This document shows, in pieces, positions 4,607 through 50,855 of a stretch of 64,000 nucleotides of DNA. Location: positions 183,178 to 247,177 of the forward strand of contig CAZQZS010000001.1 in NCBI GenBank assembly GCA_964597895.1. Direction: 5' to 3'. The stretch's first letter is position 1, and each line of letters starts with the position of its first letter. The stretch is from an uncultured Candidatus Saccharibacteria bacterium (GTDB lineage Bacteria > Patescibacteriota > Doudnabacteria > UBA920). Under the pieces are notes generated by a model. The model was not told where the DNA came from and did not search any database. It saw nothing but the letters and a program-made list of their open reading frames with translations. Made by a program: the position numbers and the translations under genes.

Positions 4607-4756
4607 CCGAGTCGTCTGGGTCTCCCAGCGACGAGGAAACTTAAGGAAAGGGGAGGCAGACCGCGAAGCGGTCGTTGGAAAGGGTCCGGGTTAAGTCCAA
4701 ACTTGATTTGGACTGCTAACCGGTGAAAACCCCTTCTGGGTTTTCCCCTCCAAAGA
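4607..4756 (+). repeat. Family-A structured intergenic repeat, long variant, occupying the position where rpmD (L30) normally sits; ends 5 nt before rplO ATG
   Basis: Near-identical to 1-131 over ~130 nt. Confidence 0.8.
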
Positions 4757-5241: not shown

Positions 5242-6534
5242 TTGTATAATACCAATATGAATAAACTCAGTTTAATTTGGAAAACTAAGGATTTGCGCTG
5301 GAAAATCACCATGGTGCTGATTCTCTTGCTGATGACCCGCGTTTTGGCGCACATCCCAATCCCTGGGGTTAGCGTAGAAGGTTTGCGGACTTTCTTTGAA
5401 AGCAACCAATTCTTGAATTTGTTGAATATTTTCTCTGGTGGTGGGCTGAGCAATTTTTCTATTGCTTTACTTGGTGTCGGTCCTTACATTACCGCATCTA
5501 TCATCATGCAACTCTTGGCCATGATCGTACCTTCACTGCAGGAATTGCAAAAGGAAAGCGGAGAAGCTGGTCGTACAAAAATCAACCAGTACACAAGATT
5601 CCTAACTATCCCATTAGCGATTTTGTCCGGATTCGGTACTATTCGCTTGCTGCAAAGCCAGGGCGGAGCAGAACTGCTCGGCGTGTTCACTCCTTTCCAG
5701 TGGTTTTTGACTTTGCTCGCGGTTACAGCCGGAACCATGCTAGTCATGTGGATCGGTGAAATTATTTCTGAGTACGGCATTGGTAATGGTATCTCTTTGG
5801 TAATTTTCGCAGGTATCGTTGCGCAGCTGCCAGCCAGCGCAGGCTCTTTGATTGAACTGTATGATCCAACTCAATTGCCGACAATTTTAGGTTTTGCTGC
5901 TGTCTCACTGCTGGTTATTGCTGGAGTGGTCTATGTAACTGAAGCTCAGCGGAATATTCCTGTATCTTATGCTAAACGCATGCAGGGTGAACGCCAGGTC
6001 GGCGGAGTCAGTTCTCATCTGCCTTTGCGTTTAAACCAAGCCGGTGTAATTCCAATCATCTTTGCCATTTCCTTGTTGCTGTTCCCAGCGATTATCGCCC
6101 AGTTCTTTGTGAACGCCAAAACTCCTTTGGTTGCAGAATGGGCGCAGAAAGCTATTGACTTCACTAATAATCAAGGGCTGTGGTACGGCGTGGCTTACTT
6201 CGTATTAGTGGTATTGTTCACCTATTTCTACACCAATATCGTGGTTAATCCTGATGATGTTTCCAAGAATATGCAGCGCAGCGGGGGCTTTATTCCTGGT
6301 ATTCGCCCGGGAAATCAGACAGCTGATTATCTTTATAAAGTGCTAAACCGCATTACCTTGCCTGGTTCGTTATTCCTTGGCACGATTGCTATTCTGCCGT
6401 TCTTGATGCAGACTTGGACAGGCACTCAAGCCTTAACATTCGGCGGTACCGGATTGCTTATTGTTGTATCGGTTGTCATTGAAAGTATCAAACAGGTTGA
6501 GGCACAACTTACAATGCACGATTACCAGAAATAA
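5242..6534 (+). CDS. secY: Preprotein translocase subunit SecY (start may be 5257)
   Basis: 430 aa, 10 TM segments, conserved plug and gate regions, operon position after L15. Confidence 0.93.
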   Translation: MYNTNMNKLSLIWKTKDLRWKITMVLILLLMTRVLAHIPIPGVSVEGLRTFFESNQFLNLLNIFSGGGLSNFSIALLGVGPYITASIIMQLLAMIVPSLQELQKESGEAGRTKINQYTRFLTIPLAILSGFGTIRLLQSQGGAELLGVFTPFQWFLTLLAVTAGTMLVMWIGEIISEYGIGNGISLVIFAGIVAQLPASAGSLIELYDPTQLPTILGFAAVSLLVIAGVVYVTEAQRNIPVSYAKRMQGERQVGGVSSHLPLRLNQAGVIPIIFAISLLLFPAIIAQFFVNAKTPLVAEWAQKAIDFTNNQGLWYGVAYFVLVVLFTYFYTNIVVNPDDVSKNMQRSGGFIPGIRPGNQTADYLYKVLNRITLPGSLFLGTIAILPFLMQTWTGTQALTFGGTGLLIVVSVVIESIKQVEAQLTMHDYQK

Positions 6535-6556: not shown

Positions 6557-6582
6557 AAACCCCCGCTGCGCGGGGGTTTTTG
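6557..6582 (+). terminator. Rho-independent terminator after secY
   Basis: cccccgctgcgcggggg followed by tttttg. Confidence 0.8.
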
Positions 6583-6672: not shown

Positions 6673-6705
6673 TCTAAAAGGGAGTTAGTAGATTCATGTG
6701 TTTTA

Positions 6706-6714
6706 TGGTATAAT
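6706..6714 (+). promoter_or_regulatory. Extended -10 promoter TGgTATAAT; ATG 9 nt downstream (leaderless transcript predicted)
   Basis: tggtataat at 6706-6714, ATG at 6724. Confidence 0.55.
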
Positions 6715-6723
6715 TTGGTCACT

Positions 6724-7047
6724 ATGGAACAAGAAAATAAAGAATTTCCTCAACATTTGGAACAACCCAATCATGAGTTTGCCGCACCAGAAAACTCTCC
6801 CATGCAAGAAACCGAAGGGTTCATTGTTGAGCTGCAGGTCACTGAAGCGGAAAAGCAAGAAATAGCCGAACAGCTGGCAGAACAGCAGCCGGTTGCTCCT
6901 ACCATACAGGAAGTAAAGGCAGCTGCAGTAGAACGCGCCCAGCAACAGGAAGAAATTGATAAAGCTCACGAGCATTTGCAAAAAGATAATGACATAGAAA
7001 CCAGCGGCGATGCCTATGAAATGATCAACGACTTAATGAATAACTAA
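6724..7047 (+). CDS. Small acidic hypothetical protein (108 aa; track ORF 6580 is an upstream extension)
   Basis: Start placed after the promoter; E/Q-rich, low complexity. Confidence 0.5.
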   Translation: MEQENKEFPQHLEQPNHEFAAPENSPMQETEGFIVELQVTEAEKQEIAEQLAEQQPVAPTIQEVKAAAVERAQQQEEIDKAHEHLQKDNDIETSGDAYEMINDLMNN

Positions 7048-7091
7048 GCTTCAGTCCGCAAATTACTTAAAACAAAAAGCAAAATTACCAA

Positions 7092-9650
7092 ATGTTATTT
7101 GGATTTGATATCAGCACGATACTTATAGCCACACTACTACTAGCGGTTTTAGTAGTAGTCTTTGTATTGGCGGCAATGTATTACATTCACAGATTTTGGT
7201 ATTACAAGCATGTGATTTTGCCTCGCACCAAAAATTGGGTGTTCTTGGAAATTCAAATGCCCAAAGACAATAGCGACGACAAAGAACGAACCTTGCGCGA
7301 TGAGGAAAAGAAAAAACTGATTGCTGTTGCAGAGCAGCTCTACACAACTTTGTCTGGCATAAGCCATGAGAACTGGTTTTGGCAGCCCAAGGATTACATC
7401 AGTTTTGAGATTGCCTGTTCGGCAAAAAAGATTTCCTTTTATATTAACTGTCCGAAGCATCTCCAGGATTTAATCGAAAAGCAGATACAAGCGCAGTATC
7501 CGCACGCATTTATTGAAGAGATTAAAGGCTATAACCCTTTTCCTAAAGCCGGCGAGCTGGCAGCCGCAGAGCTGCAGCTTAACAAGCCGTATGTTTACCC
7601 TTTGCGAACTTACGAAGACATGGAGTCTGATCCGCTTAATGCGCTGACTAACGCCATGTCAAAGTTATCAGAACAAGATGGCGCAGCTATTCAGATGATT
7701 TTGTATCCAGCCGGAACTCACTGGCAGCTCAAACCTCGTCACATGGCCTTGGAAATTCAGCAAGGCAAAAATCCAAATACCGTAGCGCAAAGCGCTAGCG
7801 GCCGGTTTGCGCGTGAGGTCGGCACTGGACTTAAGACCAGCGTTATGGGCAGCAGCAAGCCCAGCGCCGATCAAGCTCAGATGCGCACTGATTTAAGTGG
7901 CACTTATTCCGCTATCAACTTAACCCCGATGCAGCAGGAAATGGTAAAGCGCTTTGAAGAGAAAGCCAGCCGCCCAGGGTTCTTTACGAATATTAGAATT
8001 GTGACAGCTTCAGAAGTGCCGGGTCAGGCGCGCTTGCATCTGCAAAACATTACGGCGTCATTTTTGGAATACAATATGGCTCCGTTTAATGGTTTTCGCA
8101 TTAAGTCGCGCAAGAAGAAACGGATCGTCAAAGATTATATTTTCCGCATTTACCGCCGCTACGGGCGTAAAATGATTCTGAATACCGAAGAGTTGGCCAG
8201 TATCTGGCATTTACCAACTCCATACCTGGAAACGCCAAATATCAAATGGCTGTTGTCTAAAAAGGCTCCGGCACCAGTGAATTTAGCCGAAGAAGGCTTA
8301 CTGCTCGGCCGCAACGTTTACCGCGGGGTGGAAACGAAGATTCATATCGCCAAAGAAGATCGCCGGCGCCACATGTATATTCTGGGCCGAACCGGTGTTG
8401 GTAAAACCGAAATCATGAAGTATATGGCCGTTCAAGATATCGCCAACGGAGAAGGACTTTGTATTATTGATCCGCACGGCGATTTTATAGAAGACGTTTT
8501 GCCTCATATTCCTAAGCACCGTGCCGAGGATGTAATTTTATTTGACCCTTCAGATACGGAGCGACCACTGGGACTGAACATGCTTGAGGTGAATAGGGAA
8601 GAGCAAAAGGATTTTGCGGTTCAGGAGATGATTTCTATTTTTTACAAGCTGGTAACCGACCCGGCCATGCTTGGTCCAATGTTTGAGCATAACATGCGTA
8701 ACGCAATGCTCACGCTCATGGCCGACAAGGAGCATCCGGGCACGATTGTAGAGATTCCTAGAATCTTTACAGACATGGAATTTCAAAAGTACAAAGTTTC
8801 CAAAGTTGCCGATCCAGTCGTTCGCGCGTTTTGGGAAAAAGAAATGGCTAAAACTTCTGACTTCCATAAATCAGAAATGCTCGGTTACTTGATTTCTAAA
8901 GTTGGCAGGTTCGTAGAGAATAGCATGATGCGCAATATTGTCGGGCAGGCGAAAAGTTCGTTCAACTTCCGCGACATCATGGATAGCCAAAAAATCTTGC
9001 TCGTGAATCTGGCTAAGGGCAAGATTGGGGAGATGAATGCCAAGCTGCTAGGTTTGATTATTGTCTCTAAGATTCAAATGGCGGCATTGAGCAGAGCTGA
9101 TCAGCCCGAAGATCAGCGCCGAGATTTTTACTTGTACGTTGATGAGTTTCAGAATTTCATCACTGATGCTTTTTCGTCAATCTTAAGCGAAGCGCGCAAA
9201 TACAAACTCAACTTAATTATTGCCCATCAATTTTTGGCGCAGCTTCAGCAAGCAGCAGGCGCGCAGGGCGCGGCCAGCCAAGACTTGCGCGATGCGGTAT
9301 TCGGCAATACTGGCTCCATGTTAAGTTTTCGCATCGGTGTTGAGGATGCCGAAGTAATGGCCAAAGAGTTTGCGCCAACTTTTAACGAGTTTGATTTGCT
9401 CAACATAGAACGCTATAACGCGTTTGTGAAGCTGATGGTGAATGGTTCTGCTTCTAAGCCGTTCAATATGTCGACTTATCCTTTACCCAAAGCCATAGCC
9501 GAACAAAAGCAGACGGCTGAGGCAATCAGACAGCTTTCTAGGCTAAAATATGGACGAGCTCAAGCCGAGGTAGAAGCGGGGATTTTACGGGCTAGTCAGA
9601 TTGCAGATATGATGGCAGCCGGGACAGCCACTACCGAAAAAACCTTATAA
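7092..9650 (+). CDS. Membrane-anchored P-loop ATPase, type IV coupling protein-like (VirD4/TraG family), with unusually long 400-aa pre-Walker-A region
   Basis: N-terminal TM helix; Walker A LGRTGVGKTE; DPHGDF; Walker B YLYVDEFQNF; SEARKYKLNLIIAHQFLAQL resembles T4CP RKYG/Q..QL C-terminal motif. Confidence 0.65.
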   Translation: MLFGFDISTILIATLLLAVLVVVFVLAAMYYIHRFWYYKHVILPRTKNWVFLEIQMPKDNSDDKERTLRDEEKKKLIAVAEQLYTTLSGISHENWFWQPKDYISFEIACSAKKISFYINCPKHLQDLIEKQIQAQYPHAFIEEIKGYNPFPKAGELAAAELQLNKPYVYPLRTYEDMESDPLNALTNAMSKLSEQDGAAIQMILYPAGTHWQLKPRHMALEIQQGKNPNTVAQSASGRFAREVGTGLKTSVMGSSKPSADQAQMRTDLSGTYSAINLTPMQQEMVKRFEEKASRPGFFTNIRIVTASEVPGQARLHLQNITASFLEYNMAPFNGFRIKSRKKKRIVKDYIFRIYRRYGRKMILNTEELASIWHLPTPYLETPNIKWLLSKKAPAPVNLAEEGLLLGRNVYRGVETKIHIAKEDRRRHMYILGRTGVGKTEIMKYMAVQDIANGEGLCIIDPHGDFIEDVLPHIPKHRAEDVILFDPSDTERPLGLNMLEVNREEQKDFAVQEMISIFYKLVTDPAMLGPMFEHNMRNAMLTLMADKEHPGTIVEIPRIFTDMEFQKYKVSKVADPVVRAFWEKEMAKTSDFHKSEMLGYLISKVGRFVENSMMRNIVGQAKSSFNFRDIMDSQKILLVNLAKGKIGEMNAKLLGLIIVSKIQMAALSRADQPEDQRRDFYLYVDEFQNFITDAFSSILSEARKYKLNLIIAHQFLAQLQQAAGAQGAASQDLRDAVFGNTGSMLSFRIGVEDAEVMAKEFAPTFNEFDLLNIERYNAFVKLMVNGSASKPFNMSTYPLPKAIAEQKQTAEAIRQLSRLKYGRAQAEVEAGILRASQIADMMAAGTATTEKTL

Positions 9651-9662
9651 ATTCGCTTAATT

Positions 9663-9692
9663 AACCGGACTTTTTTAAAGCCCGGTTTTTTA
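9663..9692 (+). terminator. Putative terminator after the ATPase gene
   Basis: aaccgg...ccggtt stem with large loop then tttttt; moderate. Confidence 0.4.
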
Positions 9693-9698
9693 TTTGCA

Positions 9699-9727
9699 TT
9701 GACAAAAGCTTCAAAAAGTGCTATAAT
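9699..9727 (+). promoter_or_regulatory. Perfect sigma70 consensus promoter TTGACA-17-TATAAT followed by ~140-nt structured leader
   Basis: ttgaca 9699-9704, tataat 9722-9727. Confidence 0.7.
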
Positions 9728-9867
9728 TTGCTTTAATCTGCGCAAGTGGTATTCCTTGCGAAACTGTTATGTATTATGATGGTTTCGCTGGGAAGGCGAC
9801 TTCCCTGCAAGCTAAATGCTTGTATTAGTTCTTTTACAATACAATATCTATCTTATGGAGGTGAAAG

Positions 9868-11211
9868 ATGAAATGGTTGAAAGAGTGGTTGATTTGGCTG
9901 GGCGCGTTGTTTAAGCGTTTGTTTAGCCGAAGACAACCTGAACAGAGTTCGGTAGTGCCGCCGTACAATTCGACTGGCGACTTAACGGTGCCTAAGCAAT
10001 TAGGCGCGGGTAATCCGCCGGCATCGGAGCAACTACTTAGGGAAATGTCGGAAGATATTTCTTACAGGGAAGCTGCGCTAGATGCTAAATTGGTTGATGC
10101 AAAAATCGAGCAGATGTCCGCGGAACAAAAACTCCGCGAGCGCGAGCTTGATGCGAAGGCTGCCAATGAAAAAGCTCGTTTAGAGTTTGAACAAAAGCAG
10201 TTTGAGTTAGAAGCAGAAGAACGGCGAGCTAAGCAAGCTCGGATGGACCGAGAGCATGAGCAAAAGCTTGCTCTTGTTCAGTTCAAAACTGAACAAGAAG
10301 AATTTCGTAAGAACAACGAGCAAGCTGAAACTTCGAGGCAGAAACGCCGTGAAGAGAAGCAGCAGGATCAGGCTAAGCGAGCCGAGCGAAGAGCGCAAAG
10401 ATGGCAGGCATTCAAAACGAGTGCTAGTCATATTCTTTCCAAATTGGGGAGCGGGATTCAATTCTCGTTTCGCAAAGCTTGGGAACAGCTCAACAAGAAA
10501 TGGGTAAAACCGATTCTCGGTGCTTTGCTAATCGTCGGATTCGGCTTCTGGTTTTTCCAGACGGAAACCGGACAGCTTTGGCTGTTTGGCTTTCTGGGCT
10601 GGTTAGAACAAAATCAGCAGTATGTGATCACCACACTTGGCGTTGCCTTGCTGTTAGTGCTGGCTTACAGACTGGTTCGTTCTGATCACTGGCCTGCCGT
10701 GAAAGCCTCGCTGTCTGCTTTGGTTAAGCGCAAGTCCTTTTGGGTTAGCGTCTTAACCGTCGCTTTAATTGGCGGAGTTGTTTGGCTTTACCAATCCGGA
10801 TATTTATCAGTTTGGATTGCCAACCTATTGGTATTTTTATCAGAAGTGTGGGTCTACAAGTGGTATTTATTCGTCGCGATTGCCGTGGCTGCGGTTTTGG
10901 CTGTTAGTTTTCTGCCCAGATTTGTCGGCATCAGAAGCAGGCTTGGCGTAAGCAAAGACCATCTCGTGGAGAAGGCTAGCGCCATCGCTAGAGCTTTGTC
11001 CATTGCTACCGGTGTTACCGCGGCAGTGGTTTTGCTCTTTGTCGCGGTTATCGGCATTTTGAGCCATTCAGTGTTAATCACAGTTTCGGCTCTGGGTTTA
11101 TTGCCGCTTTGCGCAGGACTGAAACCGAGCTTCGGTTTTACCGTTCGGCTGCTGGTGGTGATTCTTTTCCAAGGTTTGGCTTTAACGCTGAGCCTGGTCA
11201 GACTGAACTGA
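9868..11211 (+). CDS. Membrane protein: N-terminal E/R/K-rich coiled-coil (single-alpha-helix-like) domain plus C-terminal polytopic TM domain; hypothetical, possibly VirB6-like
   Basis: Charge-periodic segment residues ~60-190; >=6 hydrophobic helices residues 210-447. Confidence 0.55.
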   Translation: MKWLKEWLIWLGALFKRLFSRRQPEQSSVVPPYNSTGDLTVPKQLGAGNPPASEQLLREMSEDISYREAALDAKLVDAKIEQMSAEQKLRERELDAKAANEKARLEFEQKQFELEAEERRAKQARMDREHEQKLALVQFKTEQEEFRKNNEQAETSRQKRREEKQQDQAKRAERRAQRWQAFKTSASHILSKLGSGIQFSFRKAWEQLNKKWVKPILGALLIVGFGFWFFQTETGQLWLFGFLGWLEQNQQYVITTLGVALLLVLAYRLVRSDHWPAVKASLSALVKRKSFWVSVLTVALIGGVVWLYQSGYLSVWIANLLVFLSEVWVYKWYLFVAIAVAAVLAVSFLPRFVGIRSRLGVSKDHLVEKASAIARALSIATGVTAAVVLLFVAVIGILSHSVLITVSALGLLPLCAGLKPSFGFTVRLLVVILFQGLALTLSLVRLN

Positions 11212-11222
11212 GGTGAAATAAT

Positions 11223-11873
11223 ATGGCAACACGCGTAGCAAAAAGCAAAGGGCCGTTGCCTTTTGCATTAGTTGAGCTTGCTGTAAATTCTTATGTTATT
11301 GCAGGTTCTGAGGGCACTTATGAGGTTACCGTTCAGGTAATCTCATTGGCTGATCCCGAAAAGGAATCGTTCACTGTTGTTCCGTTCGTAAATGGTGTTC
11401 AGCAGCCTGGTGCAGAAATGCTATCCGGAGACCGGCTGTATACCTTTCGAGCTGTAAAGCCGGAAGAAAACAAAGACGTGGTTCTAGGTTTGGCAGAGAT
11501 TGCAGACTTGAGCAATAGAATTGAGCTCACTATCAACGCGAGCAAATTTCAAAAGCCTGCTGTAGTAGCTGCCGTAACTGCTCTAAAAGAGCTGCTAGTT
11601 ACCGCATCTTACCGTGCTCCTGACGGCAATCATCAAGTGAGAATTCTGCTGTTAGATGAAAACGGCAAGTCCAGAAATGGGCAAGTTGAAATCCTTGCTG
11701 GGCAGAATTTTGAACTGAACGGAGCTATGTGCGACGGTTCTACTATCATTGAGGTCAACGATGACAAAGGCGTATCGGTAAAAATCAAGCCTTTGTCATT
11801 TGACGAAGGCTTCTTATTTACTGATCTGGACACAAGGCTTTTTGTAAAGAAAACCTTGTTGGCAAAAAAATAA
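11223..11873 (+). CDS. Hypothetical protein (216 aa)
   Basis: ORF with good context, follows previous gene by 11 nt. Confidence 0.5.
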   Translation: MATRVAKSKGPLPFALVELAVNSYVIAGSEGTYEVTVQVISLADPEKESFTVVPFVNGVQQPGAEMLSGDRLYTFRAVKPEENKDVVLGLAEIADLSNRIELTINASKFQKPAVVAAVTALKELLVTASYRAPDGNHQVRILLLDENGKSRNGQVEILAGQNFELNGAMCDGSTIIEVNDDKGVSVKIKPLSFDEGFLFTDLDTRLFVKKTLLAKK

Positions 11874-11888
11874 GGAGAAAAGAAAAAA

Positions 11889-13988
11889 ATGATCGTAAAA
11901 GGAACTTTGCTAAAATGGTTGATCGGAGATTTTTTGTTTGATCAGTTGATGGGGCCGGTGTTCGCCGGGCTGCGCCGAATCTTTTCGCCGCTAATCGAAG
12001 CTTTCAGTAAGAAGGCTGGCGGCAAGATTGCGGAGCGGGCAGCGCAAAAATTCGCCGACGAGTTCTTCACGTTGTTGGGTGAGACCGACATCGACGAAGA
12101 ACGGCTCGCCGATGCTTTTCTTGAGCGGGACGATTATAACGAGCTTGAAGCGTTTTCGAACAAGCTCGAGATGATTGGGAATTGGTTTGCACCACACGAT
12201 TCTAAGCGCGCCGATGAAATGCGGGAGTATTTTAGAAGGTTGGTCATTCAGAAAGATGTCGAGCAGACTGGCAGAATGATAAGTTTCTTTGCGGCTATGC
12301 CGGAAGACACTTTTAAGAAGTATCTCCGGTCGATTGACATTGAACACAAAGACTTGCGCAGCAAGTATAAGTTCTTGGTCGGTTTGCAGGAGAGCTTTAA
12401 GAAAGGCGGTAAGTATGGCTTCAAGTATTTCCGTCGAGCAACTCGTCGTTACTGGCATGGCTTGTTTATGCCGATTTGGACCATGCTCAAAGCTCGCGTC
12501 CAAAAAGTCGTAATCGCCGTGCTGGCAGTTTTCACTGTATTGATCATCATGGCAGTGGCAGCTTATGCAGCCAGATGGCCTGGCGCGTTGGTAGCCTTTT
12601 TGCTGGCGATGAGTGCGGCTTTGGCTTTTCTTGAGTCGGTTTGGCTGAAGGTTTACTGGTTTGTGATTTCACTGCCGGCGAGGCTGAGCACGCAAGAAAC
12701 TGTTGATGATCTGCCGGATTTGAACGAGCTGATGGCTCGGAACGAGTATCCGCCATTGGTGCGCGGATTTCGGTTGGTCTTTATGCTGATTGCCCATTTT
12801 TTGGTCATAGTATTACTCAGACCGGATTGGGCTTGGACGTATGTGTTCTGGGGATATCTCACACTATTTCTAGTATTAAGCTCGATGTGGATTAAGGCTT
12901 ACCCTTCTCCGCAGTTTATGGCTGCGAAGGTGATTTTTACCATGACATTTCTGTTCGTCGGTTTTGTTGGTTCGGTCAGGGTTTTCCCAGCTCAAGCTAA
13001 ATCCGCCGAGCTGAGCTATCAGCGCTACATGAGCACCTGGAACCAGCAAAATATTGTTGATGAACTCAATAATAATCCGGAGTTGGTTGCTACAGAGTCC
13101 GCTCTGGGTTGGCAGTTTGATCGCGATGAATTTGGCACCCCAGTTCTGGATGCAAGCGGTTTCGTTGCTGTTCAGCCATGCATGGTGAATATCAAGGGCG
13201 AGCAGGTGCAGTTTAGGTTGTCTAAAGGGGATCGGTTTAAGATTCTTGGCGACGGCGTTACTGTAAATGCTGGCGAGCCTTTAGTTCAGGTTTATGTTCC
13301 TAATCAGGACGGATCCTGGATCCAAGGTCCCTCTAGTCCTAAGTGCTGGGTTCCAGTAGCGAAGACTGGCCTGGCTATTCCGAAATCGCAATCGCAGAAT
13401 CCGTCGGCGCTAGTTTGGGTTAAACCAGATTCTGCGCCGCAGCCTGCTCCCACGCAAGAAACCGCGCCGACTCCCAAAACCGATGACATCAAAGCTATTC
13501 AGGCTTCGGTGGAATCTGTTACTGGCACGCAGCCGAGCGCTGCCAAGAAGCAATTCTTGGTCAACGCCACGGCTGTTTATGCCAGCGGCATTTGGGTAAC
13601 TAAAGGTCAAACCATTGTAGTCAAAGCTTCCGGGAAAGTGAACTCTTTGCCTGAAGCCAAGAACTACGACGCAACTTACCGCTGGGTCGGTCCGGATGGC
13701 TGGGGACAGAAAAGCCCTGGTTATATTACCGAGGGTGGAAAGTCCTTGGCCGGACCGCTTCCAGCTGGTTCTTCCTACTTGGCGCTTGCTGCTCGTGTTG
13801 CTACCAGTCAGCCGTCACTTGTTGATGGCAAATGGCTGATGGTGGGCAGCAGCAAGACCTTTACTGCGGAACAAGATGGGTATTTGTATTTTGTGCTCAA
13901 CGAGGTACTTCAGGAGAATGGCTATTCTCGGTTGGAATACCTCACTAACAATCAAGGAGGATTTCAGGTTGAGGTGAAAGTGCAATGA
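11889..13988 (+). CDS. Large membrane protein (699 aa): soluble N-domain, ~6 TM helices, PT-rich linker, C-terminal probable beta-sandwich extracytoplasmic domain
   Basis: Hydrophobic stretches residues ~200-370; linker PAPTQETAPTPKTDD; C-terminal GYLYFVLNE...NQGGFQVEVKV. Confidence 0.55.
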   Translation: MIVKGTLLKWLIGDFLFDQLMGPVFAGLRRIFSPLIEAFSKKAGGKIAERAAQKFADEFFTLLGETDIDEERLADAFLERDDYNELEAFSNKLEMIGNWFAPHDSKRADEMREYFRRLVIQKDVEQTGRMISFFAAMPEDTFKKYLRSIDIEHKDLRSKYKFLVGLQESFKKGGKYGFKYFRRATRRYWHGLFMPIWTMLKARVQKVVIAVLAVFTVLIIMAVAAYAARWPGALVAFLLAMSAALAFLESVWLKVYWFVISLPARLSTQETVDDLPDLNELMARNEYPPLVRGFRLVFMLIAHFLVIVLLRPDWAWTYVFWGYLTLFLVLSSMWIKAYPSPQFMAAKVIFTMTFLFVGFVGSVRVFPAQAKSAELSYQRYMSTWNQQNIVDELNNNPELVATESALGWQFDRDEFGTPVLDASGFVAVQPCMVNIKGEQVQFRLSKGDRFKILGDGVTVNAGEPLVQVYVPNQDGSWIQGPSSPKCWVPVAKTGLAIPKSQSQNPSALVWVKPDSAPQPAPTQETAPTPKTDDIKAIQASVESVTGTQPSAAKKQFLVNATAVYASGIWVTKGQTIVVKASGKVNSLPEAKNYDATYRWVGPDGWGQKSPGYITEGGKSLAGPLPAGSSYLALAARVATSQPSLVDGKWLMVGSSKTFTAEQDGYLYFVLNEVLQENGYSRLEYLTNNQGGFQVEVKVQ

Positions 13989-14023
13989 ATTATCAAAAAA
14001 TTCAGTGCAAATCACCTCCATAA

Positions 14024-14053
14024 AGAGACGTTGCAAAAACGTCTCTTTTAATT
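14024..14053 (+). terminator. Rho-independent terminator
   Basis: agagacgtt-gcaaa-aacgtctct then tttt. Confidence 0.8.
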
Positions 14054-14151
14054 TGCCAAAAAAAGGACTTGTGTTATAATAATTTAAAGTATTCTAGTTT
14101 GAAACCCAAACAAAAGTTCGCAAGAATACAAACAAAAATTCAACTAAAGTT

Positions 14152-14781
14152 ATGGATAAACACGCAAATTTGGCATTAATCGTGCAGATGATTGAAGCGG
14201 CTGAAAAAAACATTCAGTCTGCTAAGCATTTGTTGCGAGAAATGGCGGGCGGAGCACCAGTCAGAGGCAGCAGCAATATTGCCGAAAAAGTAACTGGTTT
14301 GGCGGTTTTAGATGGCGGCAAGATTATTGAAGGCGTGTTTGACGGCCAAAATATGATTGGTCCGGACAACAAGCAGTACCCAGTTCCAGCTAACTATGCT
14401 TCAAAATCTAAACTCGTAGAAGGAGACGTGCTTAAACTCACGATTGCTGATGATGGCTCCTTTATTTACAAACAAATTGGTCCGGTTGATCGCAAGAAGA
14501 TGATTGGTATGCTCCTGCAAGATGAAAACGGCGATTATAAAGTAATTGCTGATGGGAAAACTTTCCGAGTCCTTTTGGCTTCTTTAACTTATTTTAAAGC
14601 GTCAGCTGGCGATGAAGTCACGATTGTGGTTCCGCAAGAAGGCGATAGCCAATGGGCAGCCGTAGAGAATGTCATCAAGCACGGTGCAAATGCAGATTCA
14701 GAATTCAGTGCCGCTAGTGGGGAAGTTGATCCGGATGTAGAAGCGGATTCTTTAGCGCAACCAGAAACCGAAGAGTTTTAA
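14152..14781 (+). CDS. Hypothetical soluble protein (209 aa), acidic C-terminus
   Basis: ORF preceded by TTGCCA-16-TGTTATAAT promoter at 14053-14083. Confidence 0.55.
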   Translation: MDKHANLALIVQMIEAAEKNIQSAKHLLREMAGGAPVRGSSNIAEKVTGLAVLDGGKIIEGVFDGQNMIGPDNKQYPVPANYASKSKLVEGDVLKLTIADDGSFIYKQIGPVDRKKMIGMLLQDENGDYKVIADGKTFRVLLASLTYFKASAGDEVTIVVPQEGDSQWAAVENVIKHGANADSEFSAASGEVDPDVEADSLAQPETEEF

Positions 14782-14975: not shown

Positions 14976-15647
14976 ATGCAAAATACAGCCCAGCTCAGTT
15001 TAAATCAGAAAGTTGCCAACTTTTTGGCAGCTAAGCCAGTAATCTTGCAAATCTTGCGCTTTGGTGCCATTGGCACCCTTAACACGGCGCTGGATTTTAT
15101 TATACTTAACTACGTAACCGAAACTTTCGGAGTAGTAAGTGGTGTGCCTTTAGGACTTTTGAACGTAATTAGTTTTAGCGCGGCAGTAATTCAGAGTTAT
15201 TTATGGAACCGGGCTTGGACTTTTGCCAGCTTCAACCTTTCGCCATTCGCAAATGCGTTTAGATTGGTCGTAGTAGGCACTTTGGGTTTCGTTGCGTTTT
15301 TGCTTGTAATTTTTGGTGGTTTGCAAAATGCGGCAGAAAATTATTACTTATTTATTTTAATTGTCTTTATCGTTGTAGAAATCGTGATTTGGTATGCCTT
15401 TGGGCTTAAGTTAACTAGCAAGGACGATCGCGGCGTTGGCCAGCAGTTTGCCGTATTTATGTCTATTAGCCTAATTGGCCTGCTGATCAATAGCGGTATT
15501 GTTGCTTTAGCTTCTATTGCCTTGGCACCTTCTCTTTCCAGCCTTATCAATGAAGCTAGTATCAAGAATGCAGCCAAGATTTTGGCAACTGGTGTATCGC
15601 TCATCTGGAACTTCCTGGGCTACAAGCTTGTAGTGTTTAAGAAGTAG
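14976..15647 (+). CDS. GtrA-family membrane protein
   Basis: RFGAIGTLNTALDF ... NRAWTF motifs typical of GtrA; multiple TM helices. Confidence 0.6.
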   Translation: MQNTAQLSLNQKVANFLAAKPVILQILRFGAIGTLNTALDFIILNYVTETFGVVSGVPLGLLNVISFSAAVIQSYLWNRAWTFASFNLSPFANAFRLVVVGTLGFVAFLLVIFGGLQNAAENYYLFILIVFIVVEIVIWYAFGLKLTSKDDRGVGQQFAVFMSISLIGLLINSGIVALASIALAPSLSSLINEASIKNAAKILATGVSLIWNFLGYKLVVFKK

Positions 15648-15752: not shown

Positions 15753-17288
15753 ATGGCAGTTTACTACCAGACTTATAGACCCCAGAATTTTAGCGAGGTT
15801 GTTGGTCAAGAACCAATCGTCAAAGCGCTTCTTTCAGCTTCAAAACTTGGCAAAATTGGCCATGCTTATTTATTTTGCGGAAGCCGGGGAGTGGGCAAGA
15901 CAACTTTGGCCAGAATTCTTGCCAAAGCTGCGAACTGCCCAAATTTAAAAGATGGTGATCCTTGCGGTGTTTGCGAAGTTTGTACTGCGATAGCGCGCGG
16001 CGCTTTTTTGGATGTTGTAGAAATTGATGCCGCCTCTCATACGGGAGTAGATAACATCCGCGAGCTTATAGAGCGCATCAATTTTGGCCCGACTCAAGGC
16101 AAAACCAAAGTTTTTATTATTGATGAAGTCCACATGCTTTCTAAGGCAGCCTTTAACGCTTTGTTAAAGACTTTAGAGGAACCGCCTTCTCATGCCTTAT
16201 TTATTTTAGCGACTACCGATTTAGACAAAGTGCCAGATACGATAGTTTCGCGCACTCAGCGGTTTGATTTTAGAAAGATTACAGCACCACAGATTTTAGA
16301 AACTTTAAAACGTATTGTAAAAAAGGAAAAATTAAAGCTGGAAGAATCAGCTTTACAAATTATCGTAGATAACAGCGAAGGCGGTTTGCGCGATGCGCTC
16401 TCGCAGTTATCCATGATTGCTGTGTTGGATAAAACTTCCAGCGAAGCGGACATTCACTTGCTGCTCGGAACTACTTCTCGGGCTACGGTAGTTTCGCTTT
16501 TGGATTTCGTTGCATCTGGTACGACCTCAGCTATGCCGGAATTTTTTGCCAAACAAACGGAATTGAATTTTGACCCGAGTAGCTTTACCAGAAAAGTCTT
16601 GCAAGTTCTTCAGGAACTCTTGGAAGACAGCTTGGCGAAAACCGGCGGCGACCATGAACTAGCCGGCAAGTTTTTGTTACCACAGCTGCTTCACGTAATG
16701 CGCCTGTATTTGCGCGCCTATAAAGAAATAGAGCGGGCTTTAAGCCCAGAACTTCCTTTATTACTGGCTAGTATAGAGGCGGCCTTATACATGTCGGGAG
16801 GTCGCGGCGCTTCCCAGAACGGCAACCAGGCAACCAAGCCCGCTGCAGAGTCTGCTGCTTCTCCAGTTAATCAAGTTCAAATTCAGCAACCTGTTGAACC
16901 TGTTGTTATTGATGCAGTTGTCGCCAGCGAGGCAACTGGCAAACCACCGGTATTAGAAACAGCCCAGGTTAAGAGCTGGTGGCCTAGCTTAGTGGATGAG
17001 ATGCGCAAAGTAAATGGACCATTGGCAACGTTGCTCCGCAATTGTCCGATTGCTTCGGTGGAGGGCAATAAGGTTGTGGTGGCAGTAAAATATTTATTTC
17101 ATAAAGAACAGCTTGAAAGCACAAAAATCCGGTCGTTTATTAATGAGCACTTAAGCAGCCAGGCCGGTGGCCCAGTTATGTTTTCGGCTACTATTGATAA
17201 GCGTTTAACCGTGACCGAGCAAATCGGCGACACCGCAACTGCAGTGTCGGATGCATTGCGGATCTTTGGCGGGGAAGTCATAGAGTAG
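15753..17288 (+). CDS. dnaX: DNA polymerase III subunit gamma/tau
   Basis: AAA+ clamp-loader motifs GSRGVGKTT, DEVHML, SRTQRFDF; zinc module CGVCEVC. Confidence 0.93.
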   Translation: MAVYYQTYRPQNFSEVVGQEPIVKALLSASKLGKIGHAYLFCGSRGVGKTTLARILAKAANCPNLKDGDPCGVCEVCTAIARGAFLDVVEIDAASHTGVDNIRELIERINFGPTQGKTKVFIIDEVHMLSKAAFNALLKTLEEPPSHALFILATTDLDKVPDTIVSRTQRFDFRKITAPQILETLKRIVKKEKLKLEESALQIIVDNSEGGLRDALSQLSMIAVLDKTSSEADIHLLLGTTSRATVVSLLDFVASGTTSAMPEFFAKQTELNFDPSSFTRKVLQVLQELLEDSLAKTGGDHELAGKFLLPQLLHVMRLYLRAYKEIERALSPELPLLLASIEAALYMSGGRGASQNGNQATKPAAESAASPVNQVQIQQPVEPVVIDAVVASEATGKPPVLETAQVKSWWPSLVDEMRKVNGPLATLLRNCPIASVEGNKVVVAVKYLFHKEQLESTKIRSFINEHLSSQAGGPVMFSATIDKRLTVTEQIGDTATAVSDALRIFGGEVIE

Positions 17289-20729: not shown

Positions 20730-21086
20730 ATGAAAGATAGTAATTATCAACATTGGCCAGTATGGCAAAAGTCTATGGAATTAGTACTCAAAGTTTATAA
20801 GTTAACTAATAATTTTCCAAAGTCTGAAATGTTTGGCCTCACTTCACAAATGCGCAGATGTGTAACCTCTATTCCTGCTAATATTGCCGAAGGTAGTAGA
20901 AGGAATTCAAAAAAAGAATTGCACAGATTTTTATCTATAGCTTTTGGTTCTGGGGCAGAGCTAGAAACTTTTTTACAGATTGCTTTATCTCTAAAATTTA
21001 TCAAATCATCTGAATTTAATGATTCATATCCGCTTTTACAGGAAGTGATGAAGATGTTAAACGTAATGACCAAAAATACCAGGTAA
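20730..21086 (+). CDS. Four-helix-bundle protein (23S rRNA intervening-sequence protein family), AT-rich gene
   Basis: W..S..L...VYKLT..FPK.E.FGLTSQMRR...SIPANIAEG family signature. Confidence 0.8.
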   Translation: MKDSNYQHWPVWQKSMELVLKVYKLTNNFPKSEMFGLTSQMRRCVTSIPANIAEGSRRNSKKELHRFLSIAFGSGAELETFLQIALSLKFIKSSEFNDSYPLLQEVMKMLNVMTKNTR

Positions 21087-49326: not shown

Positions 49327-49431
49327 TGGAGAGGGCGCCGGGATTTGAACCCGGACCTTGGCCTAAGTTGGCCTGCCTCTGGGGAGGTACAGTTTTCAAG
49401 ACTGTTGCTTTTTCCATTAAGCTACGCCCCC
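49327..49431 (-). tRNA. tRNA-Ser(UGA)-like, 105 nt, with abnormal 34-nt variable region
   Basis: Acceptor GGGGGCG/CGCCCTC, D arm GCTT-AATGGAAA-AAGC, anticodon arm ACAGT-CTTGAAA-ACTGT, T arm CCGGG-TTCAAAT-CCCGG, encoded CCA. Confidence 0.7.
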
Positions 49432-50012: not shown

Positions 50013-50855
50013 CTATTGGTGAACCAGCCGATTTAAAAGCACCAAGAAAATCGGAACAGGAGAGCGAGAGTGAGTCAGACGAAAGCTAAACTCGTTTAAG
50101 TAGTCCTGCAAATATTTGGGCGAGACTCTATGATACGTGCCATCGATAGACCGCTTGATTTGGCTAAAGAAGCCCTCAACGCTGTTGGTGTGAGTCCAGC
50201 CATTAACATACTGCTTACTAGAGTGGTTCACAGAGCTATGACCATAACCCTTTAGGCTCTTGCGGTTATACACCGAAGCACCGTCAGTCATAATCGCACT
50301 GCCGGCCTCAACCTCGTTATGGATTAACGGAATGGTATTGAACTGCTTTATTTTCTGCATTACCACAGCTTTAGCACTACCGCCACGCTGAACCAAACCT
50401 AAAACCTTTGGAACACCCGCCCTAGAGCGTGGTGTTTTCATTTTCTCCAAGTAGGCTTCATCCACCTCAACCACTCCGCTTAGTTTTAAGTCGCTCAAAT
50501 CCATAAGGGAGCGGATTTGTTTAGCGATACGCCAAGCAGTTTTGTAGGTTACACCCAAGTCTCTTTCCAACTCTTTGCCGGAAACTCCATTACGAGAGTT
50601 GGCGAACTTGTAAATGGCGAAGAACCACAAGACTAAATCTGTTTCTGATTTATGGAAGATAGTCCCAGCAGTGGGGTGAATTTGATAAGCACAGCTAGCG
50701 CAAGCCCACGCTTTGCGTTTCTTAATCCTGTGCCAACTAGACTTCCCACAGTTAGGGCAAGGGAACTGATAGCCATAACGATACTTAAAGATATACTCCA
50801 AGCAAGCGTCATTATCTGGGAAGTCTTTTTTGAAGTCTTTTATTGTGTATTTCAT
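50013..50855 (-). mobile_element. IS1595-family (ISXO2-like) transposase gene; IS boundaries not determined
   Basis: N-terminal Zn-ribbon CPNCG...CASC; DDE region with DEAY, TDGASVY, HSSVNHS..YVNG.HTNSVEGFFSQIKR. Confidence 0.85.

Follow-up and report, generated by a model that had tools for sequence, protein, structure and literature searches.

What is a coupling-protein-like ATPase doing downstream of secY in the chromosome of a Doudnabacteria-type bacterium, and do the membrane-protein genes that follow it belong to the same machine? We addressed this question in a stretch of 64,000 nucleotides (hereafter the window) of an uncultured Candidatus Saccharibacteria bacterium assigned by GTDB to the Doudnabacteria (assembly GCA_964597895.1, contig CAZQZS010000001.1, positions 183,178 to 247,177 of the forward strand). 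An original prediction, made from the letters without database searches, had grouped an 852-aa ATPase resembling type IV coupling proteins (T4CPs) with three uncharacterised membrane proteins and two flanking acidic proteins, as a minimal translocation apparatus. Our analysis favours, with a probability of roughly 55%, a different view: the ATPase would be the core of a remote coupling function for a type IV secretion system (T4SS), and the proteins encoded behind it an unrelated, variable envelope island. Patescibacteria depend on other cells, and a T4SS is essential in the one genetically tractable species of the group, yet it has no recognisable coupling protein, while thousands of orphan T4CP homologues are found elsewhere in these genomes. 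All six open reading frames (ORFs) of the original prediction were recovered at their positions on the forward strand:

6724-7047, forward strand: acidic ORF, ATG at 6724, 107 aa, net charge -20, ending 44 nt before the start of the ATPase
7092-9650, forward strand: ATPase, 852 aa
9868-11211, forward strand: p447, 447 aa
11223-11873, forward strand: p216, 216 aa
11889-13988, forward strand: p699, 699 aa
14152-14781, forward strand: p209, 209 aa

The ATPase contains the motifs GRTGVGKT (residues 432-439), DPHGD (460-464), VDEFQNF (683-689) and ARKYKLNLIIAHQFLAQL (701-718), which confirms every motif read earlier from the sequence, including the T4CP-like one near the C-terminus. Residues G432, G437, K438, D460, G463, D684, E685, K703, Q713 and Q717 do not vary among 38 relatives that share 33-50% identity with it. 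A single N-terminal transmembrane (TM)-like segment was predicted, with a hydrophobic helix within residues 1-30 and a long helix spanning residues 7-47 in the structural model; the anchor of canonical T4CPs usually comprises two helices. Behind the anchor two domains could be delimited:

7233-8291, forward strand: N-terminal cytoplasmic domain, DUF8128, residues about 48-400, with a predicted fold like that of the VirB4 N-terminal domain
8298-9491, forward strand: RecA-like ATPase domain, with Walker A at nt 8385-8408, Walker B at nt 9135-9149 and a helical insert at residues about 503-631

The roughly 400 residues ahead of the P-loop had been considered to have no obvious counterpart, a view that we could not uphold. 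The region corresponds to Pfam DUF8128 (PF26449), a family that precomputed annotation assigns to the identical protein P0001 and to each of the relatives listed (our local Pfam scan did not report PF26449), and a phmmer search with residues 1-400 against 1.84 billion representatives retrieved 2,117 clusters at E <= 1e-3, with full-length members of about 800-870 aa. Its predicted fold is of the VirB4 N-terminal domain type, and a literature search for 'DUF8128' returned zero papers. In the AlphaFold 2 model the insert of the second domain consists of eight helices (residues 503-631), situated between the strand and P-loop at 427-438 and the strand at 679-683. It is the most conserved part of the protein, containing the longest invariant runs among 61 relatives (506-545 and 581-619). 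VirB4 has a similar helical insert, and an all-alpha insert therefore does not distinguish a T4CP from VirB4.

Four T4CP-related Pfam models exceeded their gathering cut-offs in the ATPase, namely TrwB_AAD_bind (40.0 bits; cut-off 20.5), T4SS-DNA_transf (27.8; 20.1), TraG-D_C (23.7; 22) and DUF87. The NCBIfam T4CP equivalogs all scored far under cut-off, the best being SXT_TraD (59.9 versus 366 bits) and the CD1115 family reaching 38.2 versus 250, and a sequence search of the PDB aligned only the P-loop region with TrwB and DotL. With the predicted structure as query, TrwB was the top match for the ATPase half. A role as a replacement for FtsK was also considered and ranked low, as structural scores prefer the VirD4/VirB4/HerA branch over FtsK, the motor domain of which was not the best match. 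TrwB, VirD4, TraD and DotL, the canonical T4CPs, lack a cytoplasmic domain of about 350 aa between anchor and P-loop, whereas the ATPase of the window has one.

Outside the Patescibacteria the DUF8128 ATPase family extends to phages and plasmids. In a plasmid collection 315 records matched the ATPase (Streptomyces, Bacillus, Clostridium, haloarchaea, Sulfolobus), among them a full-length homologue encoded on a plasmid of Embleya sp. NBC_00896 (WP_331738717.1; 26% identity over residues 83-821, E 7e-76). The gene order there comprises a weak, sub-threshold TrbL/VirB6-like match, PrgI (VirB3), a VirB4-type ATPase (matching P-loop_TraG, AAA_10 and TraC_F_IV), the homologue, a Replic_Relax relaxase and an SLT+NlpC/P60 hydrolase, an arrangement that by its gene content places the homologue in the coupling-protein position of a monoderm conjugation system. 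WP_331738717.1 shares with the ATPase of the window the full-length architecture and the Pfam pattern (T4SS-DNA_transf, TrwB_AAD_bind, DUF87, TraG-D_C), but it is set among T4SS genes and a relaxase, while the latter is chromosomal, has no such neighbours and shows housekeeping-like conservation. Among phages, phrog_5156 matched residues 69-836 at 6.5e-92, and tblastn detected homologues in Bacillus phage G (gp156) and in the Geobacillus phages TP-84, D6E and PK2.1. These PHROG 5156 members, phage G gp156 and TP-84 gp48, resemble the ATPase over the whole profile length, with tblastn matches of 21-23% identity that cover up to 89% of the query, but they are phage-borne and lie beside a VirB4-type ATPase or a weak VirB2-like match: gp156 follows the 549-aa VirB4-type ATPase gp155 (locus L085, 2324-6466), and gp48 of TP-84 (L084, 4495-7034) follows gp47, a 126-aa protein with a weak, sub-threshold TrbC/VirB2 pilin match (5.8e-5). 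Firmicutes tailed phages carry a T4CP/VirB4-like pair.

Because the Embleya homologue holds the coupling-protein position in a conjugation system and the phage G homologue stands behind a VirB4-type ATPase, we file the ATPase under the T4CP lineage as a DUF8128 subclass, a placement that is very probably correct, judging from profiles and predicted structure. The T4CP likeness proposed earlier is thereby borne out by the four Pfam models, the structural match to TrwB and the full-length homologue in the T4CP slot of a conjugation cluster. The same data bear on whether the protein might instead be a VirB4-type ATPase that assembles a pilin or channel and does not couple substrates, with the two-domain layout of VirB4 and a fused membrane anchor. 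The VirB4-like predicted fold of its N-domain agrees with such a role, as do a total length and domain order resembling VirB3-VirB4 fusions and the weak TrbC/VirB2 match of TP-84 gp47 (below cut-off). Yet a separate VirB4-type ATPase (P-loop_TraG/AAA_10/TraC) adjoins the homologue in both Embleya and phage G, the Embleya homologue is located beside a relaxase, as expected of a T4CP, and the sequence profiles match T4CP models and not CagE_TrbE_VirB or AAA_10. The Pfam search for the VirB4 families CagE_TrbE_VirB, AAA_10 and TraC_F_IV gave zero matches in the ATPase at E <= 0.1. Compared with VirB4 (TrwK of R388), then, the ATPase has the VirB4-type N-terminal domain but no match to the family at sequence level, and its homologues co-occur with a separate VirB4. 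We regard an assembly role as improbable.

To place the ATPase among its neighbours, we retrieved 437 genome loci encoding a relative of the ATPase. The best 80 of these, which bear the labels Doudnabacteria, Patescibacteria or generic 'Saccharibacteria', were searched by tblastn with 13 window proteins; related loci are denoted L001, L002 etc., L001 being the closest relative (ATPase 93% identical). A further set comprised six distant Patescibacteria loci, the ATPases of which are 47-52% identical to that of the window. By tblastn the loci have a common frame: rplO and secY, parted from the ATPase by a short stretch that varies, then a variable slot and, beyond it, p209, GtrA, DnaX, p547, HtrA and ruvX. 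The slot and its borders in the window are as follows:

9699-9727, forward strand: perfect consensus promoter TTGACA-17-TATAAT with a TG extension (TTGACA-17-TGnTATAAT), 12/12 positions, left edge of the slot
9729-14066, forward strand: hypervariable slot, here with p447, p216 and p699
14053-14080, forward strand: promoter-like site TTGCCA-16-TATAAT with TG, 11/12 positions, at the slot's right edge, ahead of p209

Nucleotide similarity to L001 breaks off at 9728 and sets in again at 14067; between these points the sequences are unalignable, and the flanks are 81-90% identical in nucleotides. In place of p447, p216 and p699, L001 has four unrelated ORFs. Across the loci the distance between the ATPase and p209 varies from 102 to 9,918 bp, with unrelated contents, and in 11 of them p209 follows 102-453 bp after the ATPase with no intervening ORF of 70 aa or more. 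All three slot proteins were found in L002 only, at 40% (p447), 34% (p216) and 43% (p699) identity, where the flanking proteins are 90-96% identical. Weak matches of p216 and p699 (27-38%) occur in L003, L011, L014 and L016, and 75 of the 80 loci have none of the three. Both slot borders coincide with strong predicted promoters. Because the borders match promoters and the content is replaced between close relatives, p447-p216-p699 can be considered, with high confidence, a separately transcribed and strain-variable island, and not a set of conserved partners of the ATPase.

The proteins themselves gave few clues. Residues 55-190 of p447 contain 17.6% E, 22.8% K+R and 11.8% Q and are followed by 7 TM-like segments, in agreement with the earlier description of a charged, ER/K-rich segment joined to a polytopic domain; p699 has 4 TM-like segments within residues 199-360 and p216 has zero. 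None of the three matched Pfam, NCBIfam, PHROG or PADLOC, nor any T4SS family even at E 0.1. Sequence searches of the PDB with p699 and p216 yielded nothing usable, and tblastn of p699 against plasmids zero matches. A mobile-element origin of the island was examined and rejected: integrase, tRNA, transposase and repeats are absent from the borders, and the GC content (45-50%) is like that of the surroundings. Islands of variable content are a common feature between core genes. The slot resembles flexible or hypervariable envelope-protein islands in its conserved core flanks (78-90% nucleotide identity), its replaced or diverged content and its many membrane and large charged proteins, but it differs from them in having borders without integrase, tRNA or repeats, at two strong promoters instead.

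Among close relatives the slot may encode other polytopic proteins, charged proteins of giant size (1,100-1,500 aa) or an SLT transglycosylase with a membrane anchor. The giant proteins (1,163-1,516 aa; L004 14313-18635, L006 12915-17465, L055 12644-16135) have no Pfam match, and that of L004 repeats the motif NWTDSDFKRLLEKLE four times. In the slots of more distant Doudnabacteria (L026-L079, e.g. L072 12636-13596) we observed a recurrent pair of all-helical proteins, related to each other and about 77 and 147 aa long, sometimes with a Gly/His-rich protein of about 93 aa, again with no Pfam match.

On these grounds we consider it very improbable that the ATPase, p447, p216, p699 and the two flanking proteins form one minimal T4SS-like or other ATP-driven envelope machine, as the original prediction had it. 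The genes are adjacent and on the same strand, p447 and p699 are polytopic, other slots hold a membrane-anchored SLT lytic transglycosylase (a VirB1-like function) and giant charged proteins, and in monoderm T4SSs a T4CP does occur together with hydrolases and polytopic proteins of VirB6-like type, as in the Embleya cluster. But the slot proteins are missing from nearly all loci, the closest included, and have diverged to 34-43% identity in the sole locus with all three; in 11 loci the ATPase and p209 stand practically side by side; a perfect promoter opens the island; and neither T4SS-related slot proteins (E 0.1) nor a VirB4 among the scanned ORFs could be found. The original prediction had named lack of conserved synteny of the neighbours as grounds for abandoning the five-gene machine, and since such synteny is lacking, that reading is largely refuted. 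It had also treated the acidic ORF and the 209-aa protein as mere flanks, while these two proved to be the recurring neighbours of the ATPase.

Across the related loci the median identity is 69.7% for the ATPase, 70.5% for SecY, 70.6% for p209 (53 loci), 57% for HtrA and 41.7% for DnaX; in the 80 Doudnabacteria-like genomes the conservation of the ATPase thus roughly equals that of SecY, and its surroundings are housekeeping genes in all loci examined. Pfam was run on the majority of window ORFs from about 180 aa upwards, with 14 ORFs of the ribosomal-protein region upstream of secY and about ten of 110-175 aa lying outside the scan, and it found none of the relaxase, VirB4, VirB6 and pilin families, in keeping with the earlier remark that no relaxase, VirB4 or pilin is visible. 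VirB3, VirB6 and VirB8 partners next to the ATPase were likewise not found among the scanned ORFs with Pfam and NCBIfam. Because no T4SS component was detected near the ATPase, its link to a T4SS is drawn from family homology only.

A published census gives this isolation a context. According to Quinonero-Coronel et al. 2025 (PMC12102498), 5,713 VirD4-type T4CP homologues are present across 2,918 genomes of Patescibacteria, just 148 of these homologues near virB4, and the T4SS of these bacteria is related to the MPF-FATA (monoderm) class, mostly without a relaxase. The T4SS cluster of Southlakia (S. epibionticum) has no recognisable coupling protein (PMC10633639). Like the orphan T4CPs of that census, the ATPase of the window is chromosomal, far from virB4 and without a relaxase, and it almost certainly belongs to this population; the searched text of PMC12102498 contains no mention of DUF8128 or a VirB4-like N-domain, of SecY-level conservation, of an upstream small protein, of p209-DnaX linkage or of a variable slot. 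Since the S. epibionticum T4SS is without a recognisable coupling protein and thousands of T4CP homologues lie away from virB4, a remote coupling ATPase of a T4SS is the most economical reading of the locus.

In such a system the vertically inherited core would consist of the small charged protein and the 852-aa ATPase anchored by one helix; in the latter, a module resembling the N-domain of VirB4 is joined to a RecA ATPase of the TrwB/VirB4/HerA type, which contains the helical insert. By homology, the ATPase would assemble into a ring on the cytoplasmic side of the membrane, where ATP would drive the recruitment of a macromolecular substrate (protein or DNA) and its feeding into a membrane channel. 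Our best guess for this channel is a monoderm-type T4SS encoded elsewhere on the Patescibacteria chromosome and devoid of its own coupling protein. The space between the ATPase and the conserved p209-GtrA-DnaX block would be a recombination-prone slot, occupied here by a separate operon of three fast-evolving envelope proteins.

Several observations weigh against remote coupling. PMC12102498 reports that the T4SS genes of S. epibionticum are essential for epibiotic growth and that its T4CP homologue, which may or may not be a DUF8128 protein, is not. Conservation at the level of SecY and the linkage to p209 and DnaX are equally compatible with a housekeeping role independent of a T4SS, and neither the window nor any of the six distant Patescibacteria loci has a T4SS component within 7-10 kb of the ATPase. 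The ATPase half scores nearly equally against VirB4 and HerA, which, together with the VirB4-like N-domain, bears on whether the protein couples substrates or assists assembly. Finally, some slots hold cell-wall hydrolases and polytopic proteins, so that slot and ATPase may be loosely tied in function.

The absence of a T4SS nearby, the non-essential homologue of S. epibionticum and the housekeeping-like conservation and linkage favour an exapted role, in which the ATPase, the upstream charged protein and p209 would handle DNA or protein at the membrane independently of a T4SS, e.g. in chromosome or DNA transactions connected with replication. The order small protein-ATPase-p209-DnaX recurs in Doudnabacteria and in four of six distant lineages (L083, L086, L087, L088), where p209 homologues of 45-59% identity lie 0-2 genes 3' of the ATPase and DnaX comes next in three of the four. 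p209 (net charge -13) combines an N-terminal helix, two beta-rich subdomains with AbrB/MazE-like GD motifs and an acidic tail ending in EEF; the Pfam MazE match is weak (0.08) and below cut-off, and some homologues are named antitoxin or DNA-binding regulator by JGI. The end of the tail (EEF/EEL) resembles the interaction tips of SSB-type tails. Exaptation of orphan T4CPs has also been raised by the authors of PMC12102498. On the other hand, gene order may persist in small streamlined genomes without a functional link, p209 and the ATPase are under separate promoters and up to 9.9 kb apart, p209 is not adjacent to the ATPase in the distant loci L081 and L082, and DNA binding by p209 is putative, neither p209 nor its profile having a usable PDB relative by sequence. 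T4SS-independent exaptation thus appears to us possible but doubtful. More speculative still is a combination of the elements above, in which the DUF8128 ATPase, the charged protein and p209 would be a Patescibacteria-wide housekeeping translocation module, derived from a conjugative coupling protein but independent of any T4SS, that might move DNA or a specific protein at the membrane in time with replication or division, and the promoter-bounded slot a dedicated landing site for diversifying surface proteins of these epibionts.

At E <= 0.001 p209 had at least 8,000 matches, that is all scored candidates. Within Doudnabacteria its acidic tail is of variable length with a conserved terminal EEF or EEL, and in more distant homologues the tail is missing.

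The second recurring neighbour of the ATPase is the upstream charged protein. A small ORF ends just before the ATPase in 74 of 74 Doudnabacteria-type loci with enough upstream DNA, within about 180 bp and mostly <60 bp; these ORFs encode 81-186 aa (one 212) with a net charge of 0 to -28, net acidic in all but one. They evolve fast and retain only a loose C-terminal helix motif. In the six distant Patescibacteria loci a charged protein of 166-184 aa is encoded directly upstream of the ATPase, and five of the six form a clear family with the conserved C-terminus ...WLKIIPGVNKFFLEQEAKIKTD... An hhalign comparison of the Doudnabacteria acidic upstream proteins with the family from other Patescibacteria gave a probability of 0.1%, i.e. 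no homology; because of this result the two groups, at the level of sequence, share position and character only. The acidic ORF at 6724 had no match in Pfam, NCBIfam, PHROG or PADLOC, and Pfam searches with upstream proteins and small slot proteins from other loci gave zero matches.

Upstream of this ORF the following elements were identified, with the secY gene as the left-hand context:

5242-6534, forward strand: secY
6557-6579, forward strand: hairpin resembling an intrinsic terminator, 3' of secY, with a 10-bp stem (7 GC pairs) followed by TTTTTG
6685-6714, forward strand: candidate promoter TTAGTA-18-TATAAT with a TG extension, matching 3/6 positions in the -35 box, read directly and unlisted by the consensus scan

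Only 9 nt part the end of the extended -10 box, TGgTATAAT, from the ATG at 6724, and because of this spacing the earlier remark that the ORF is leaderless is reasonable; a leaderless or near-leaderless mRNA is plausible. No Shine-Dalgarno sequence is visible at the start of the ATPase (7060-7092), and p447 (9845-9868) has a strong GGAGGTG 5 nt upstream, so that genes of the core and of the island would use different initiation signals. By its sequence, the hairpin divides the ribosomal-protein/secY operon from the downstream genes. The original prediction had placed the ATPase group exactly where the adk-map-infA-alpha operon normally follows secY, and this position is sustained by the strong terminator behind secY and by tblastn with E. 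coli queries, which gave zero matches of Adk and InfA in the window or in the fetched loci.

Orphan T4CPs in Patescibacteria, DUF8128 as a catalogued domain and islands between core genes are already known; novelty may lie in the predicted fold of DUF8128, which resembles VirB4, in a conservation that matches SecY, in the small neighbours that recur and in the variable slot bounded by promoters. The ATPase, the upstream charged protein and p209 offer a concrete target set for interaction studies. The adjacent membrane proteins are very probably strain-variable cargo and a false lead as motor parts, and may matter as surface or host-interface proteins.

The scanned ORFs in the remainder of the window encode housekeeping functions (glycolysis and pentose-phosphate enzymes, RecJ, MreB, penicillin-binding proteins, DnaX) and one IS1595 transposase. 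Further features are:

14976-15647, forward strand: GtrA-like membrane protein, conserved right-hand context
15753-17288, forward strand: DnaX, conserved right-hand context
20730-21086, forward strand: free-standing, bAvd-like gene for a '23S rRNA intervening sequence protein', with ruvX on one side and a GalT-like gene on the other
49330-49431, reverse strand: 102-nt tRNA found by Rfam and missed by default ARAGORN; with introns allowed, tRNA-Phe (GAA) with a 15-nt intron
50013-50855, reverse strand: IS1595-family transposase (DDE_Tnp_IS1595, 1.1e-33), the sole mobile-element gene seen in the window, far from the ATPase region
21-130, 1023-1092 and 4645-4753, forward strand: three copies of a dispersed intergenic element of about 70-110 nt in the ribosomal-protein operon

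The intergenic element also occurs in relatives (L002 14394-14502, L001 12452-12520, L003 1750-1831), before DnaX or within the ribosomal-protein cluster, with copies 80-89% identical and an optional internal hairpin. It has no Rfam family at gathering score; its predicted RNA fold reaches -46.5 kcal/mol (z = -2.8), and the stem GACCGC/GCGGTC is replaced by GGCCGC/GCGGCC in L001 and L002, a compensatory change.

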